A stretch of DNA of 64,000 bases, from positions 1,681-65,680 of the IMG/VR virus record IMGVR_UViG_3300009183_000091. One strand, written 5' to 3'. Position 1 is the first letter of the stretch. Each line of letters opens with the position of its first letter. Positions 5,207 to 56,265 of the stretch are shown piece by piece. The DNA is from a virus (taxonomy: Duplodnaviria > Caudoviricetes). A program made the translations under genes and the position numbers. The notes under the pieces were generated by a model. The model searched no databases, had not been told where the DNA came from, and saw only the letters and a list, made by a program, of their open reading frames with translations.

Positions 5207-5599
5207 ATGGACATGAAAATAATAGATCTTCTAAAGAACAAACTACCCAAAGAATATGTTGATGCAATAATCAACAACTTAAAATCACCATCAATCCTGT
5301 ACGAAGAAGCAGGAGACATAGAAGGAGAACTACTATCTCTATTTGATTGGACAGACTCTAATGAAGGACATGATTTCTGGAGTAATGTATTCGAGTCAGT
5401 AACAGAGAATAAGAAGTTACCCAAGATGAATAGAGCAATCATCGACTACTTACCAGGAACAATCATCTTCACTAAAAGCTCTATAATGACTATGAATGTA
5501 GCAGGCATGGACATCAAGTTAAACTTTGACTACACACCTAGTATCATAGAGTTTATGTCTGAATCAATCGAAGAAAAATTTTATACCTGGATGAATTAA
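5207..5599 (+). CDS. hypothetical protein
   Basis: 130 aa, FDWTDSNEGHDFW motif. Confidence 0.7.
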   Translation: MDMKIIDLLKNKLPKEYVDAIINNLKSPSILYEEAGDIEGELLSLFDWTDSNEGHDFWSNVFESVTENKKLPKMNRAIIDYLPGTIIFTKSSIMTMNVAGMDIKLNFDYTPSIIEFMSESIEEKFYTWMN

Positions 5600-5613
5600 T
5601 TAAAATTATTTTG

Positions 5614-5621
5614 TATCTTTG
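5614..5621 (+). promoter_or_regulatory. Bacteroidota sigma70 -7 element
   Basis: TATCTTTG matches TAnnTTTG, upstream of a structured leader. Confidence 0.7.
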
Positions 5622-5730
5622 CTGAGTTCCATCTCACACTATACGAACATAAGGTATTAATGAAGCCTTGCAATGAAACTGAAGTGAGATGCAGTGGATT
5701 TGCGAGGTTTTTTAATTTTATACATCTCAC
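5622..5730 (+). ncRNA. structured 5' leader: two hairpins with complementary loops, the second terminator-like
   Basis: CATCTCAC (5630-5637) complementary to loop GTGAGATG (5684-5691); 11-bp stem 5663-5673/5700-5710 ending in a T run. Confidence 0.65.
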
Positions 5731-6261
5731 ATGAAAAAAGAAAGAAAAGATTTCTTCAAGATTACCTTTGAAGACATGCAACTAGCCAAAGATTTTTTTG
5801 AAAAAGAAAAGCATTACATTGAATGGTTTTATGCTGTTTCTGAATATTATCAGGGCAATTTAATTCAAATTAAAAACAAAATCGTTCAAAAATATTTCAA
5901 TAATTATAAAAAAACGATGGACTTCATAATAAAGTCTAAACACATTGGTGAAAAAGGCGGTTTGCAAAAGGCTATGAATCAAGAAGTTAAGTCTCAGACC
6001 CTAGAAGGGGTGGTAGAGCAACCCTTGTACCATCCCCCCTACCTAATTAGTAATAATAAAATAGAAAATATAAATAATAAAACATTAATTAAAAAAGAAG
6101 AATTAATAAACAAGTTAGAAAAATTAATAAGTGAAGAAAATTTCGATAGGGAAATGACTTATGATTACATGAATGATTATATTCAGTTTGCTGAGTATTA
6201 TTATTCAGATGAAGAAAGAAAAAAGATAGGCGATGATTTGTTACAATTTAAAATAAAATAA
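5731..6261 (+). CDS. putative replication initiator / replisome organiser (DUF6291-like N-terminus)
   Basis: Helical N-domain ending GEKGG, followed by a K/N/E low-complexity linker typical of phage initiators. Confidence 0.5.
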   Translation: MKKERKDFFKITFEDMQLAKDFFEKEKHYIEWFYAVSEYYQGNLIQIKNKIVQKYFNNYKKTMDFIIKSKHIGEKGGLQKAMNQEVKSQTLEGVVEQPLYHPPYLISNNKIENINNKTLIKKEELINKLEKLISEENFDREMTYDYMNDYIQFAEYYYSDEERKKIGDDLLQFKIK

Positions 6262-6657: not shown

Positions 6658-7368
6658 ATGCGTACAGCTTATATATATAAAATAACAAATCCAAAAGGAA
6701 GAATATATGTAGGTTCTACCGTTAAATTAGATCAAAGAATTTCTAGTTATAAAGGCTTACATTGCAAATTACAAGTAAAAATATATAGGTCAATAAAAAA
6801 ATATGGATGGGAAAATCATTTATTTGAAATATTAAAAGAATGCAAAGAATTAGATAGATATTATTATGAATCTTATTATGGTAATTTTTATAATGTATTA
6901 TCTAAAGAAAATTTAAATTTAGCATTGCCAAAATCAGACATGTTAGGTTTTTGCTTATCAGAAGAAACCAGAAAAAAAATAGGTAAAGCACATAAAGGTA
7001 AAATAATAAGCGAAGAACAAAAAAAACAAATGAGAGAAAATCTTAGATTGTCATTAATAAAAGATGGTCATCCAATGAAAGGAAAAAGCCCATGGAACAA
7101 AGGTAAATCATTTCTTTCTGGCGAAAAAAATCCTATGTTTGGAATTAAAAGATCTGAAGATTGGAAAAGACAACATTCTGAAAGAGCTAAATTAAATAAT
7201 GCTTCAGGAGAAAATCACTCCGCTTCAAAAATAGTTTTAGATTTTAATACTGGGATATATTATTTAACAGTAAAAGAAGCTAGCGAATCTCTTGGGATAA
7301 ATTATTCAACCTTAAGATGCAAATTAAATAAATCTAGAAAAAATAAAACGAGTTTAAAATATGTGTAA
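6658..7368 (+). CDS. GIY-YIG homing endonuclease with NUMOD3/NUMOD1-like repeats
   Basis: YIYKITN..IYVGS..R; SEETRKKIG, GEKNPMFG; C-terminal EASESLGINYSTL. Confidence 0.9.
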   Translation: MRTAYIYKITNPKGRIYVGSTVKLDQRISSYKGLHCKLQVKIYRSIKKYGWENHLFEILKECKELDRYYYESYYGNFYNVLSKENLNLALPKSDMLGFCLSEETRKKIGKAHKGKIISEEQKKQMRENLRLSLIKDGHPMKGKSPWNKGKSFLSGEKNPMFGIKRSEDWKRQHSERAKLNNASGENHSASKIVLDFNTGIYYLTVKEASESLGINYSTLRCKLNKSRKNKTSLKYV

Positions 7369-10061: not shown

Positions 10062-10886
10062 ATGAATTTAAAAGAATTATCAAGACCATTAGACATTTCT
10101 GACATAGACTTCAGAGTACAATCTATTAACGCTAAAGGGTACGCTACGATACTAGCATACAAAGATTCAAGAGTTGATATGAATAGATTAGATGAAGTAG
10201 TTGGACATACAGGATGGCAAAAGAGATACGAACTTATTAACGGCAATCTATTCTGTTCAGTAGGCGTGTATGACAAAGACAACAATCAATGGATATGGAA
10301 ACAAGATGTAGGTACAGAGTCAATGACTGAGAAAGAAAAAGGTCAGGCATCTGATGCATTCAAACGTGCATGCTTTAATTGGGGTATAGGTCGTGAGCTT
10401 TATGAGTACCCAATCATATCTATTCCTCTTGTACTAGATTCTGAGTATGAAATGTCATCAGGTAAACCAAGACAAAAATGGGGATTAAAGCTAAGAGATT
10501 GGAAATGGCATACTCAATTTACAGATGGTAAGATTAATTACCTGGCATGTAAAGATACTAATGGTAAGCTAAGATTTCAATGGGGTACGTTTGTTAAGGA
10601 AGTTACCGTACAACCTACCGTACAACCTACTGTAAAAGCAACTAAGAAAGTTGTTGATCCAGATGCTAACATCGAAGGCTTCTTGAAGAAGAAAGATGAA
10701 GAAGTTTCTATTGTGCTAACACCATTAGAGTCTGCTTTACAAGAGTTAAGCGAGATAACAAGCATTGAGCAACTTAAAGCATGGGCTAAGCCTAAGGCTC
10801 TAGAGCTAGAGAAAGAAGGCTCAGATGTGGCAGAGATGTTTAAGTTAGCGTGTAATAATTATGTAGTAAAATTAAGTAAGAAATAA
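10062..10886 (+). CDS. Sak/Rad52-like single-strand annealing recombinase
   Basis: LAYKDSRVDMNRLDEVVG..W; EKGQASDAFKRACFNWGIGRELY. Confidence 0.85.
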   Translation: MNLKELSRPLDISDIDFRVQSINAKGYATILAYKDSRVDMNRLDEVVGHTGWQKRYELINGNLFCSVGVYDKDNNQWIWKQDVGTESMTEKEKGQASDAFKRACFNWGIGRELYEYPIISIPLVLDSEYEMSSGKPRQKWGLKLRDWKWHTQFTDGKINYLACKDTNGKLRFQWGTFVKEVTVQPTVQPTVKATKKVVDPDANIEGFLKKKDEEVSIVLTPLESALQELSEITSIEQLKAWAKPKALELEKEGSDVAEMFKLACNNYVVKLSKK

Positions 10887-12687: not shown

Positions 12688-13002
12688 ATGAGCTGGCATC
12701 ATTGGATAGAAGAACATCATCCAGAAGCGGACATAAACTACGATTACTTACTTGAATTAGCAATAAGTAGTTATAGCTTAATGAAGAAGTCAAGGAAGAT
12801 GGGCCACATAGATAGAGTCCATTACATAATAATGTGGTGGTACAAACATAAACATAAGTTTAAAACATATAACACTACAGTAAAGCTAGGTATAGCATTA
12901 GAGATTCATCACGCTACAGTAATTCATTACTATAAACGTAGAAAAATATCAAGAATATACGAAGAAGAAACAAAATGTATTAAAGACTTTATAGAAAGCT
13001 AA
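12688..13002 (+). CDS. DnaA C-terminal-like HTH DNA-binding protein
   Basis: LGIALEIHHATVIHY resembles the DnaA domain IV signature; coupled to dnaB. Confidence 0.6.
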   Translation: MSWHHWIEEHHPEADINYDYLLELAISSYSLMKKSRKMGHIDRVHYIIMWWYKHKHKFKTYNTTVKLGIALEIHHATVIHYYKRRKISRIYEEETKCIKDFIES

Positions 13003-14381
13003 TGAGCATACAGATAAGAGCAGAGAAAATAATCATACATGATATACTTGTCAACCCAGGTGACATGCATAAAATCATGGAGAAAATTGATACTACCATG
13101 ATCACTGACCCTGTGAACAAGGCCGTATTTGAAGCTATCACATCTCTGTATTTATCTCAAGAAGCAGTTAACACTACATCTTTATTCCATGAGGTATGTA
13201 AACTTAAATCAATAGCAGCAAAGAAAGCAGCATCAGAGATAAGCTCCTTAATAGCGGTAAGTCCAGGGAAAGAAGAGCTTAAAGATGCTATGAACTTAGT
13301 GGTATCAGAAACGATTAGAAACGAACATGTTACATTGTCTCAGACAATATCCAATATGGCTAGTCAACCAGACTATGATCCAGGTAATATACTTAATCTA
13401 TTACAGGACCACATCACAAATAACAAGTACAAGTCTATACTCAACAAGAAAAGCTATGACAATCAAACCCTACTAAATGAGTTAGAGGAGAAGATGAAGA
13501 TAGCAGCGGACAGTAGTGGAGTATCAGGGATTCGCACTGGCTATCATAAGTTTGATGAGATTACTTCTGGTATGCAACCAACTAACCTTATCATCGTAGC
13601 CGCAAGGCCTGGTGCTGGTAAAACTCAGATGGGACTTGGTATAATGAAGACAGCATCCATAAGAGGTAACAAAAAAGGTTTGTTTATATCATGCGAGATG
13701 GATGAGGTTCAAGTAATGAAGAGACTAATAGCCGTTGACTCAGGTGTTGAAGGTTATTCAATTAAGAAAGGAAAGCTATCCCCAACAGAAAGAGGTAGGT
13801 TCGAGCGATCTAAAAGAAGAATAGCAAATTCAGGCGTTAAGATTGTAGGTGGAGCATTCACAATAACAGATGTTATCACGATGGTTTACAAAATGAAATA
13901 CTCAGAAGGATTGGATTATGTAGTAGTTGATTACATACAGAAGATTACAAGCCCTGGGGCGCAGAATAGAACCAATGAGGTAGGTGATGTATCAAGAAAG
14001 CTAAAAGATATGGCAAATGAGCTTAAAATACCTGTAGTGGCCCTTGCTCAGCTGTCTAGAGCAGTGGAGATGAGAACGGATAAGAGGCCTATCCTAAGTG
14101 ACCTTAGAGAATCAGGAGATATAGAGCAAGATGCTGACATCGTAGCATTCCTTTACAGGCCTGCTTATTACTTGCCAGGAAACGAGAGAGACACTAGTCC
14201 ACTAGCGAAACAAGCATTTGTTTACTTGGCTAAGCATAGAGATGGTGAGTTAGCAGATATAGAGCTAGAGTTTGAATCAGATATTCCAGCATGGAGAAAT
14301 CCTAATGAGATTGGAGATTATGATGAAGAGGTAGTTCAATCTACTATACAAAGATTTGACAATGAAAACTATATATTTTAA
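13002..14381 (+). CDS. dnaB: replicative DnaB-family helicase
   Basis: Walker A AARPGAGKT, SCEM, VVVDYIQ, LAQLSR, SDLRESGDIEQDAD, KHRDG. Confidence 0.95.
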   Translation: MSIQIRAEKIIIHDILVNPGDMHKIMEKIDTTMITDPVNKAVFEAITSLYLSQEAVNTTSLFHEVCKLKSIAAKKAASEISSLIAVSPGKEELKDAMNLVVSETIRNEHVTLSQTISNMASQPDYDPGNILNLLQDHITNNKYKSILNKKSYDNQTLLNELEEKMKIAADSSGVSGIRTGYHKFDEITSGMQPTNLIIVAARPGAGKTQMGLGIMKTASIRGNKKGLFISCEMDEVQVMKRLIAVDSGVEGYSIKKGKLSPTERGRFERSKRRIANSGVKIVGGAFTITDVITMVYKMKYSEGLDYVVVDYIQKITSPGAQNRTNEVGDVSRKLKDMANELKIPVVALAQLSRAVEMRTDKRPILSDLRESGDIEQDADIVAFLYRPAYYLPGNERDTSPLAKQAFVYLAKHRDGELADIELEFESDIPAWRNPNEIGDYDEEVVQSTIQRFDNENYIF

Positions 14382-44760: not shown

Positions 44761-44788
44761 ATTATTTTTTTTTTATAAAAAAACTAAA

Positions 44789-44816
44789 CAAATATACGAA
44801 TTATTTATTATATTTG
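44789..44816. promoter_or_regulatory. back-to-back Bacteroidota -7 elements
   Basis: TATATTTG on - (44789-44796) and on + (44809-44816). Confidence 0.7.
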
Positions 44817-44904
44817 TTGTGTCAGGTAGCAGTGACAATTAAGAAATTTATATAAATCCCTATGATGAAAGAACTGCTACTCTGGATTCATAGGGTTTTT
44901 TATT
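44817..44904 (+). ncRNA. structured 5' leader: two hairpins with complementary loops, the second terminator-like
   Basis: GTAGCAGT (44826-44833) complementary to loop ACTGCTAC (44873-44880); CCCTATGA/TCATAGGG stem plus T run. Confidence 0.7.
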
Positions 44905-45354
44905 ATGGAAGAAATTTGGGAAAAAGTATCGTGGGCAAAAAATTATTTGATTTCTAACTTAGGGAATGTTTTTTCATTGAAGTCAAAAAGATTAATGAAA
45001 AAAAATGTAAGCAATAGAGGTTATGAGCGAGTTACTATAAAAGGAAAACAAGTATCAGTACATAGATTGGTTTGCGTTGCTTTTTTAGGAGAAAATAAAA
45101 ATAAAAAAATAGTAAATCATAAAAATGGAATAAAAACAGATAACAGAATTGAAAATTTAGAATGGGTAACTTGTAGAGAAAATACAATGCATTATTATTC
45201 TTCTATTCCTCTTAGGGAAATAAAGTTAAAAACATGTATTAGATATGAAAAATGGATGTATATAAATGGAAAAAATAGATCTATAGGAAGGTTTAAAACA
45301 CCCGAAGAAGCAATTAAAGCATATTATGATAAATTAAAAACTATAAATTTATAG
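44905..45354 (+). CDS. NUMOD4-HNH homing endonuclease with AP2-like tail, antisense to the late operon
   Basis: EEIW..YLISNLG; VHRLV..VNHKNGIKTDNRIENLEW; IGRFKTPEEA. Confidence 0.9.
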   Translation: MEEIWEKVSWAKNYLISNLGNVFSLKSKRLMKKNVSNRGYERVTIKGKQVSVHRLVCVAFLGENKNKKIVNHKNGIKTDNRIENLEWVTCRENTMHYYSSIPLREIKLKTCIRYEKWMYINGKNRSIGRFKTPEEAIKAYYDKLKTINL

Positions 45355-56192: not shown

Positions 56193-56265
56193 AGCCAAGT
56201 AGCTTAGTGGTAAAGCCCGACCTTTTAAGTCGGAGTACGCAGAGTTCGATTCTTTGTCTTGGCTC
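56193..56265 (+). tRNA. tRNA-Lys(UUU), atypical
   Basis: AGCCAAG/CTTGGCT acceptor, GCTT/AAGC D stem, CCGAC-CTTTTAA-GTCGG anticodon arm, GTTCGATTC T loop; no encoded CCA. Confidence 0.7.

Follow-up and report, generated by a model that had tools for sequence, protein, structure and literature searches.

Results

The DNA analysed here is a 64,000-nucleotide (nt) stretch (positions 1,681 to 65,680) of the virus record IMGVR_UViG_3300009183_000091 (Duplodnaviria; Caudoviricetes), hereafter the window, which represents nearly the whole genome (65.7 kb) of a phage. Our subject is a leader at 5614-5730 on the + strand, in a space bounded by the stop of an unknown gene (5599) and the ATG at 5731 of a gene of 176 amino acids (aa; 5731-6261, + strand), which is likely of the replisome-organizer type. 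This leader, referred to as copy 1, comprises a promoter-like box, two hairpins, a U run and three short sites, A, B and C, and site B, in the second hairpin, is complementary both to A, in the first hairpin, and to C, at the start codon. A second leader, copy 2, lies at 44809-44901. An earlier note, made from the letters of the window alone, had described copy 1 as an RNA switch, and the box, A, hairpin 2 with B, the U run and C were all recovered at the positions that it gave.

Transcription of copy 1 is predicted to depend on a -7 box of the Bacteroidota sigma-A type, TATCTTTG, recognized by pattern match at 5614-5621 (+ strand, as are all features of this leader). Because the -7 element of Flavobacterium has a G at -5, as laid out in part of a published study (PMC6847099), the predicted +1 was placed from this G at 5626, the first base of hairpin 1; the box stands at the same distance in all leader-bearing relatives. 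Hairpin 1 (5626-5649) would form the 5' end of the RNA, with a GUUC/GAAC stem (5626-5629 and 5646-5649) and a 15-nt loop containing site A (5630-5637; CATCTCAC in DNA, CAUCUCAC in RNA), and it is part of the minimum-free-energy (MFE) structure only when the RNA begins at the predicted +1. An A/U-rich spacer (5650-5661), which in the relatives is likewise A/U-rich and measures 12-35 nt, links it to hairpin 2 (5662-5711). The latter consists of 12 outer pairs, where the earlier note had correctly seen a stem and counted 11, a UGAA/GGAU internal loop (5674-5677 / 5696-5699), a 4-base-pair (bp) ACUG/CAGU inner stem and a 10-nt apical loop that holds site B (GUGAGAUG, 5684-5691). It is far more stable than its shuffled versions (-18.9 kcal/mol, z -4.63, with none of 200 shuffles as good) and runs into a T6 stretch (5708-5713) continued by AA and T4 (5708-5719), a putative intrinsic termination point from which a short RNA of about 88-92 nt is predicted. 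The second CATCTCAC (CAUCUCAC in RNA), site C, covers 5723-5730, that is, positions -8 to -1, and touches the ATG at 5731. The predicted duplex energies of the two competing pairings are -12.5 kcal/mol for A.B and -12.9 kcal/mol for B.C. The same leader also holds a 24-codon open reading frame (ORF), 5660-5734, which begins in the spacer, extends across hairpin 2 and has for its stop a TGA sharing bases with the ATG at 5731; it is identical in the related locus L051 (L numbers denote related loci throughout) and absent from the other leader classes.

Copy 2, which the earlier note had placed at 44817, is indeed present with its box, two hairpins, UGAA/GGAU internal loop and T6. Its -7 box, TATATTTG, lies at 44809-44816 (+ strand) and predicts a +1 at 44821. 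Hairpin 1 (44821-44836, + strand) reads GUCA[GGUAGCAG]UGAC, with site A at 44826-44832, and hairpin 2 (44858-44895, + strand; z -3.37, 0/200 shuffles) contains the UGAA/GGAU internal loop and site B, CUGCUAC, at 44874-44880 (+ strand). The loop words are wholly unlike those of copy 1, yet are again complementary to each other (GTAGCAG / CTGCTAC), with 7 predicted pairs between the two 8-nt loops. Only 3 nt separate the end of a U6 run (44896-44901, + strand) from the start codon of an HNH homing endonuclease gene (44905-45354, + strand). Two divergent -7 boxes stand 13 nt apart at this locus, TATATTTG on the - strand at 44789-44796, directed toward a 1517-aa gene, and that of copy 2 on the + strand at 44809-44816, directed toward the HNH leader. 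Leader and HNH gene form a + strand island within a - strand structural block (44761-44904 region), an arrangement consistent with the insertion of a mobile cassette that brought its own promoter.

Both copies have the features of a terminator between promoter and gene, namely a stable, G+C-containing stem followed by T6. A standard terminator scan, with its loop limit of 3-8 nt, skipped hairpin 2; a terminator-anchored scan, in which an 8-nt loop word had to be complementary to a site about 35 nt upstream, found that, among the 22 terminator-like hairpins of the genome, the two copies alone combine a -7 box about 50 nt upstream with a matching loop word. Counted on its own, the word of copy 1 is unremarkable, with 4 occurrences in the window where 1.43 would be expected, a count that 4 of 100 shuffles also reach. 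The positioned triple of at least 8 nt, evaluated on the window alone, arose in 14 of 20,000 dinucleotide shuffles of the 200 nt upstream of the gene.

The relatives provide the evidence on which the element chiefly rests. A collection of homologs of the 176-aa gene, drawn from IMG/VR and JGI metagenomes, comprised 78 loci in addition to the window and 60 distinct upstream regions, 59 of them full-length. For a triplet we required an exact word of at least 6 nt, with at most 6 nt between C and the ATG, the reverse complement (B) falling between -65 and -25 and a direct copy (A) between -130 and -80. Such a triplet is present in 30 of the 59 distinct upstream regions, as compared with 0.54 on average and never more than 3 over 200 dinucleotide shuffles, and the 30 triplets use 12 distinct words; the single-base variants GGACAG, GGGCAG and AGGCAG switch at all three sites together. 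In an alignment comprising eight class III leaders, 93.0% of the cells are paired versus 74.8% in shuffles (0/500 as high), and no more than 55.6% when the partners are slid against each other. Two-sided changes affect all five pairs of hairpin 1 and three of the six A.B pairs, and in hairpin 2 they are seen at 9 of 18 pairs (6/15 outer and 3/3 inner); the kissing loops predicted for this class are 6 nt long and fully complementary, and both of their stems covary. The loop-loop contact proposed from the window is thus borne out by covariation among homologs, in the A.B helix itself and in the joint change of the words. Of the RNA switch as a whole, it is the alternative A.B and B.C pairings and the link to a replication gene that stand on firm ground; termination, switching and action in trans are inferred.

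The element folds preferentially as the + strand transcript: of 34 elements, 27 have the better fold on the + strand, 5 have it on the - strand and 2 are ties, with a mean difference of -4.05 kcal/mol. Furthermore, some of the site pairings use G.U (L013, L032). From the + strand bias and the G.U pairs together it follows that the functional form is a + strand RNA rather than DNA. In the 16 representatives with all three sites, A.B and B.C are nearly isoenergetic (-10 to -19 kcal/mol, with B.C duplexes at -10 to -17 kcal/mol), and in the L019 group the B.C pairing takes in the AUG itself. A duplex test on MFE loops underestimates these pairings because the MFE structure closes extra pairs inside the loops.

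A descriptor scan extended the family beyond these homologs. To match the descriptor, a locus needed a -7 box, 7 or more pairs in the outer stem, and a word of 7 nt or longer that contains G/C and has its complement at the centre of the hairpin; in the collected loci there were 66 matches among 869 boxes, versus 3 in shuffled controls. After the addition of 35 contigs sharing one hairpin core, for a total of about 0.7 Mb of loci, a rescan yielded 49 unique elements with 27 words, of which L003:173, L021:1030, L135 and L137 are probable false positives; class III, with words of only 6 nt, is left out of this number. Site C occurs in 21 elements and lies 0-3 nt from the next ATG in 21/21. Elements with A and B only are the majority, at 26 of the 47 unique elements with a downstream ORF. 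Leaders without C stand before HNH homing endonuclease genes (copy 2 of the window, L103, L126, L127, L145, L165, L186 and L191), before SNF2-helicase/methylase fusions (L173 and L192) and before small ORFs that precede the 176-aa homolog (L011, L059, L064, L066, L050, L082 and L086).

What is conserved across the family is the architecture together with a short purine-rich internal loop, often with UGAA on its 5' side, and no conserved ligand-binding core of the riboswitch type was found. The scaffolds of hairpin 2 belong to several mutually unalignable classes, and in a MAFFT alignment of the two window copies with L145 and L064 the apical parts were not alignable. Rfam 15 gave no match at the gathering score to the leaders in the window or in 20 related loci, and nothing relevant at E values up to 10 in the region 5550-5800; a full-text literature search returned no description of a comparable element in Bacteroidota phages. 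We conclude that these sequences constitute an uncatalogued, widespread family of predicted promoter-proximal kissing-loop and terminator leaders in Bacteroidota-type phages.

Several relatives depart from the common plan. L038, L047 and L048 carry word A (GUUUGACAC) in the loop of hairpin 1 and have no site C; here the second hairpin is branched and of much greater size, holds the complement of A in its 3' half and runs into U7. In L019, L039, L052, L031, L053, L037 and L068, an ATG situated 0-3 nt after A opens an ORF of 34-51 codons that reads across hairpin 2 and extends past the main start. The leader-less homologs of L016, L017 and L018 are directly preceded, about 150 nt upstream, by a small ORF that by eye looks like a helix-turn-helix protein and may be a protein counterpart that takes the regulatory place of the leader. 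In L085:1-250, an N-terminal fragment of a homologous gene runs directly into a class II site A, a joint that represents either recombination at the leader or an assembly chimera.

The gene behind copy 1 belongs to no Pfam or PHROG family. Its conserved N-domain forms three helices in the predicted fold (predicted local distance difference test, pLDDT, 81.5); this model has no match in the PDB and only weak matches in BFVD, to DUF6291, DnaD-domain and replisome-organizer proteins (E at least 0.03). Distant sequence relatives of the protein belong to PF19808 (DUF6291), with one named TIGR02220, and one homolog has a sub-threshold Phg_2220_C C-terminus (E 2.6e-5). The gene had been called initiator-like from the sequence, and a role in replication is plausible through these distant DUF6291/TIGR02220 homologs and through a leader allele found before a DnaD-like loader. 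This allele, with the word ACAACCAC, precedes four different small gene families, in each case with C at the start; they include a DnaD-like helicase loader (phrog_2514, E 1.7e-26) and another family that weakly matches O-like replication initiation proteins.

The converse arrangement is seen in L001 and L002, whose flanks are 91-99% identical and whose proteins are nearly identical, and which carry leaders of about 120 nt belonging to different classes and bearing different words. Since the same leader is found before different genes and different leaders before the same gene, leader and gene are independent modules, and the word can therefore not be a binding site of the downstream protein. 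The exchange between L001 and L002 fits a specificity cassette and, as far as a comparison of sequences can indicate, a determinant that would act between molecules. Over the 6.5 kb available for each of these two loci, there are further replaced or inserted segments, for example of about 450 nt after L001:3556, the genomes being mosaic overall.

Discussion

The leader described here is probably a previously undescribed RNA element that controls replication genes. With moderate confidence, we regard a two-output attenuator leader with trans feedback on the replication gene as the best explanation of its features. According to this scheme, the RNA would start at the predicted 5626, hairpin 1 would display A and hairpin 2 would display B, to be followed by the U run and by C. 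The loop-loop kiss between A and B would form first in the course of transcription and hold B off C, so that the state of the leader would be set by the occupant of B, for which A competes with C. As one output, many transcripts would end at the U run of hairpin 2 and give an RNA of about 90 nt; as the other, read-through transcripts would be translated only while B is kept off C, the B.C pseudoknot covering the start, which lacks a Shine-Dalgarno sequence, from -8 to -1 and blocking initiation. This second output would suit the host group, as Bacteroidota translation starts without a Shine-Dalgarno sequence and is tuned by local structure, and structure near the start lowers initiation in Flavobacterium, at least in the portion of the published work that bears on this point (PMC6847099). 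Leader RNAs would build up with genome copies and, acting in trans, would compete for sites A and C on newly made transcripts, which would lead to more termination and more of the B.C state and hence to shutdown of the gene, a form of dosage or copy control. The analogy with P4 CI and P1 c4 makes it plausible that the terminated leader RNA would act in trans, and we prefer the feedback model because a purely cis scheme has no input. The products of the three types of downstream gene, that is, initiators, homing endonucleases and methylase-helicases, are plausibly needed at a low level only, while templates rise a hundredfold, and feedback would suit all three.

A number of observations weigh against this model. 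Hairpin 1 of copy 1 is weak (-1.4 kcal/mol, with 11 of 200 shuffles equally good), and the promoter box pattern TANNTTTG alone is not enriched in the window (100 occurrences versus 84 expected). The U runs are weak in the C-bearing L012, L013, L019 group, L053 and L069, the longest T run in the relatives ranging from 1 to 7, and termination is therefore not universal. L030, L032 and L086 have a weak or absent A and two C sites. Copy 2 has no third site C, and C is missing from all HNH- and SNF2-linked leaders, so the core element must work without a translational target. If A.B always formed in cis, B would never reach C, and the model needs an extra input; finally, a look for additional targets in trans found the leader words at no other start codon of the genome.

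The simplest counter-proposal, a chance repeat near an ordinary intergenic terminator, could draw on the A/T-rich region and on the whole-window 8-mer count, which is only mildly high, but it is refuted by the shuffle tests, given the rarity of the positioned triple (14/20000) and its presence in 30/59 relatives against a mean of 0.54, and by the covariation of stems and sites; we set it aside as practically nil. Three copies of an 8-bp word within 101 bp beside a replication gene might instead be operators or iterons bound at the DNA level by a protein such as the downstream product, the more so as origins and autoregulated initiator genes often show this kind of arrangement. This reading is hardly credible, since the inverted copy is always in the apical loop of a hairpin with covarying stems, A is likewise in the loop of a covarying hairpin, some matches are of the G.U type, folding is biased to the + strand, near-identical proteins follow different words (L001 and L002) and the same word precedes unrelated proteins. 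A B.C pairing with the opposite sign, promoting translation as an activating pseudoknot with A as the built-in inhibitor, would resemble the rep genes of IncI-alpha and IncB plasmids, on which Asano and Mizobuchi (1998) are said to have worked, and shares with that case the geometry of a hairpin loop pairing beside the rep start. Here, however, the B.C duplex occupies -8 to -1 and extends over the AUG in the L019 group, there is no competing structure hiding the start that B.C could open, and start-proximal structure lowers initiation in Flavobacterium, in the part of the study that treats it (PMC6847099), all of which makes activation very improbable.

Control coupled to a leader ORF, as in plasmids R1 (tap) and ColIb-P9 (repY), would make A the start region of a small ORF whose translation through hairpin 2 stops termination and unmasks C, while B, in cis or in trans, blocks both starts. 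It is encouraged by the 24-codon ORF of copy 1 and by leader ORFs of at least 30 codons that start right after A and no more than 30 nt from the predicted +1 in 7 of 20 representatives (classes II, IV and V), as against 1.13 on average and at most 4 in a set of 500 shuffles. That test was post hoc, however, and the 7 leaders amount to only three related groups; classes I and III, both window copies included, have no ATG beside A, and the peptide varies at the covarying stems. ORFs reading through B are found in 11 of 20 representatives against 8.0 expected, a number reached by 39 of 300 shuffles, which tells against a leader peptide as a general feature, and we consider control through such an ORF improbable. 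A purely structural role in cis, without sensing or trans action, is a better supported but still rather unlikely alternative to the feedback model: A.B would stabilize or chaperone the fold of the 5' hairpin and terminator, perhaps guarding the RNA from decay or fixing termination efficiency, and C would be a fixed damper of translation. The majority of leaders (26/47) are of the A.B-only type and work without C, hairpin 1 of each window copy begins right at the base predicted as the 5' end, as in 5'-protective stem-loops, and a look for targets in trans elsewhere in the genome found none. A fixed damper, on the other hand, needs no identical A and C with near-equal pairing energy, and neutral drift leaves unexplained the replacement of a whole leader between flanks that are 91-99% identical.

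An extension of the feedback model, possible although we hold it doubtful, is that the leader words serve as barcodes, a terminated leader RNA acting in trans both to hold the expression of initiators, helicase loaders and homing endonucleases constant against rising genome copies and to silence the replication gene of any co-infecting phage with the same word. If this proved true, lytic phages would exclude one another, or be incompatible, through RNA, and swaps of whole leader cassettes between near-identical phages would be an escape route.

The closest known systems are immunity RNAs and plasmid copy-control RNAs. The c4 RNA of phages P1 and P7 is processed from a leader, and its loops pair with targets that recur along the transcript itself, one of which is at the start of the first gene; the specificity of c4 differs between these two close relatives; it controls an antirepressor in a temperate phage and uses two-part targets. 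This work is reportedly that of Citron and Schuster (1992) and Heinrich (1994). The antirepressor, the temperate lifestyle and the two-part targets have no counterpart in the leader described here, and the Rfam scans, in which a C4 family would presumably count if Rfam contains one, gave no match to it. In P4, seqC is located at the start region of the first downstream gene, and the CI RNA is excised by processing, the termination that it triggers taking place at other sites. By pairing with seqA on its upstream side and with seqC on its downstream side, the processed leader RNA of P4 keeps the replication genes from being expressed, as described in a section of the published account (PMC4825925). 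The likeness to CI lies in a sense-encoded effector within an untranslated leader, with targets on both sides and replication genes under control (same section of PMC4825925). The order target-effector-target, of the P4 type, is found here as A, B, C and is kept in 30 of 59 relatives; the resemblance to P4 and P1 pointed out in the earlier note stands for this order and for the target at the translation start, and not for the third site as a general feature. The present leader nevertheless has no sequence or Rfam relation to CI, and its effector loop lies within the terminator-like hairpin itself, with the upstream target in a hairpin loop, which gives a kissing geometry. Furthermore, its phage has Bacteroidota as host phylum and shows no signs of lysogeny, whereas the host phylum of P4 is Proteobacteria.

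In the plasmids pT181 and pIP501, a promoter-proximal terminator in the rep leader is used depending on a loop-loop RNA contact, and countertranscript attenuation of the pT181 type is said to have been described by Novick (1989). These systems differ from ours in that the antisense RNA comes from the other strand and acts by refolding between pre-emptor and terminator; no alternative pre-emptor helix was found here. The packaging RNA (pRNA) of phi29 has two mutually complementary loops that covary between relatives as the sequence drifts. It is, however, part of the packaging motor, with no leader, terminator or start-site target, while the leader described here is without a link to packaging. 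In plasmids of the I-complex, in IncB and in R1, a loop beside the initiator gene kisses its partner, and single loop bases set specificity and compatibility, according to a part of the literature on these replicons (PMC10724649). The similarity is that of a hairpin loop pairing beside the rep start, C being 0-3 nt from the ATG in 21/21 elements here. In contrast, the plasmid regulator is a countertranscript from the opposite strand, whereas both partners are on the + strand in our family (27/34 elements), a leader peptide is coupled to rep, whereas we find no conserved leader peptide and no ORF beside A in either window copy, although long ORFs do follow A in 7 of 20 leaders, and the rep pseudoknot activates translation, whereas B.C should block it.

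The system is of a known kind, leader-embedded antisense-like RNA control of replication genes, of which the variant described here is new. RNA regulators of phage replication have so far come mainly from Proteobacteria (P4, P1 and plasmids); Bacteroidota phages differ from these in having other promoters and no initiation based on a Shine-Dalgarno sequence. The element is common in freshwater phage contigs, as shown by the tally of 49 unique elements, with 27 words among them, over some 0.7 Mb of loci. If action in trans is true, the leaders would provide a programmable, orthogonal set of RNA switches for Bacteroidota and a new mechanism of dosage control or inter-phage exclusion.

Genomic context and occurrence

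The phage is of a type that infects Bacteroidota, and its habitat is freshwater. No integrase or repressor family was found among the 38 window ORFs compared with PHROGs, many ORFs remaining unannotated, and missing integrase and repressor matches are no proof of a lytic lifestyle. The 176-aa gene has no homolog in 185,579 bacterial and archaeal species genomes, and among INPHARED phages there is no DNA or protein relative of the leader region, of this gene or of the portal. RNA-based immunity, which had been suggested as one function of the switch, is unlikely in the lysogenic sense given that integrase and repressor families are missing from these ORFs and homologs from these genomes. The stretch is present in metagenomes from 15 studies, mostly of freshwater, wetland or soil, and a single RNA run carries it, with 5% of the sampled words, a level that is not evidence of expression.

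The early or replication block of the genome is on the + strand and contains an Erf-like annealing protein (10062-10886), DnaB (13002-14381) and, between 15529 and 16951, a MazG-like pyrophosphatase, a Holliday junction resolvase and SSB. The structural block, with the endolysin, giant proteins, portal and terminase, is on the - strand. Two genes 3' of the 176-aa gene, a GIY-YIG/NUMOD3 homing endonuclease gene (6658-7368) is encoded without such a leader directly upstream. The sole tRNA of the window, and also its sole Rfam match, is a tRNA-Lys (UUU) at 56194-56265.

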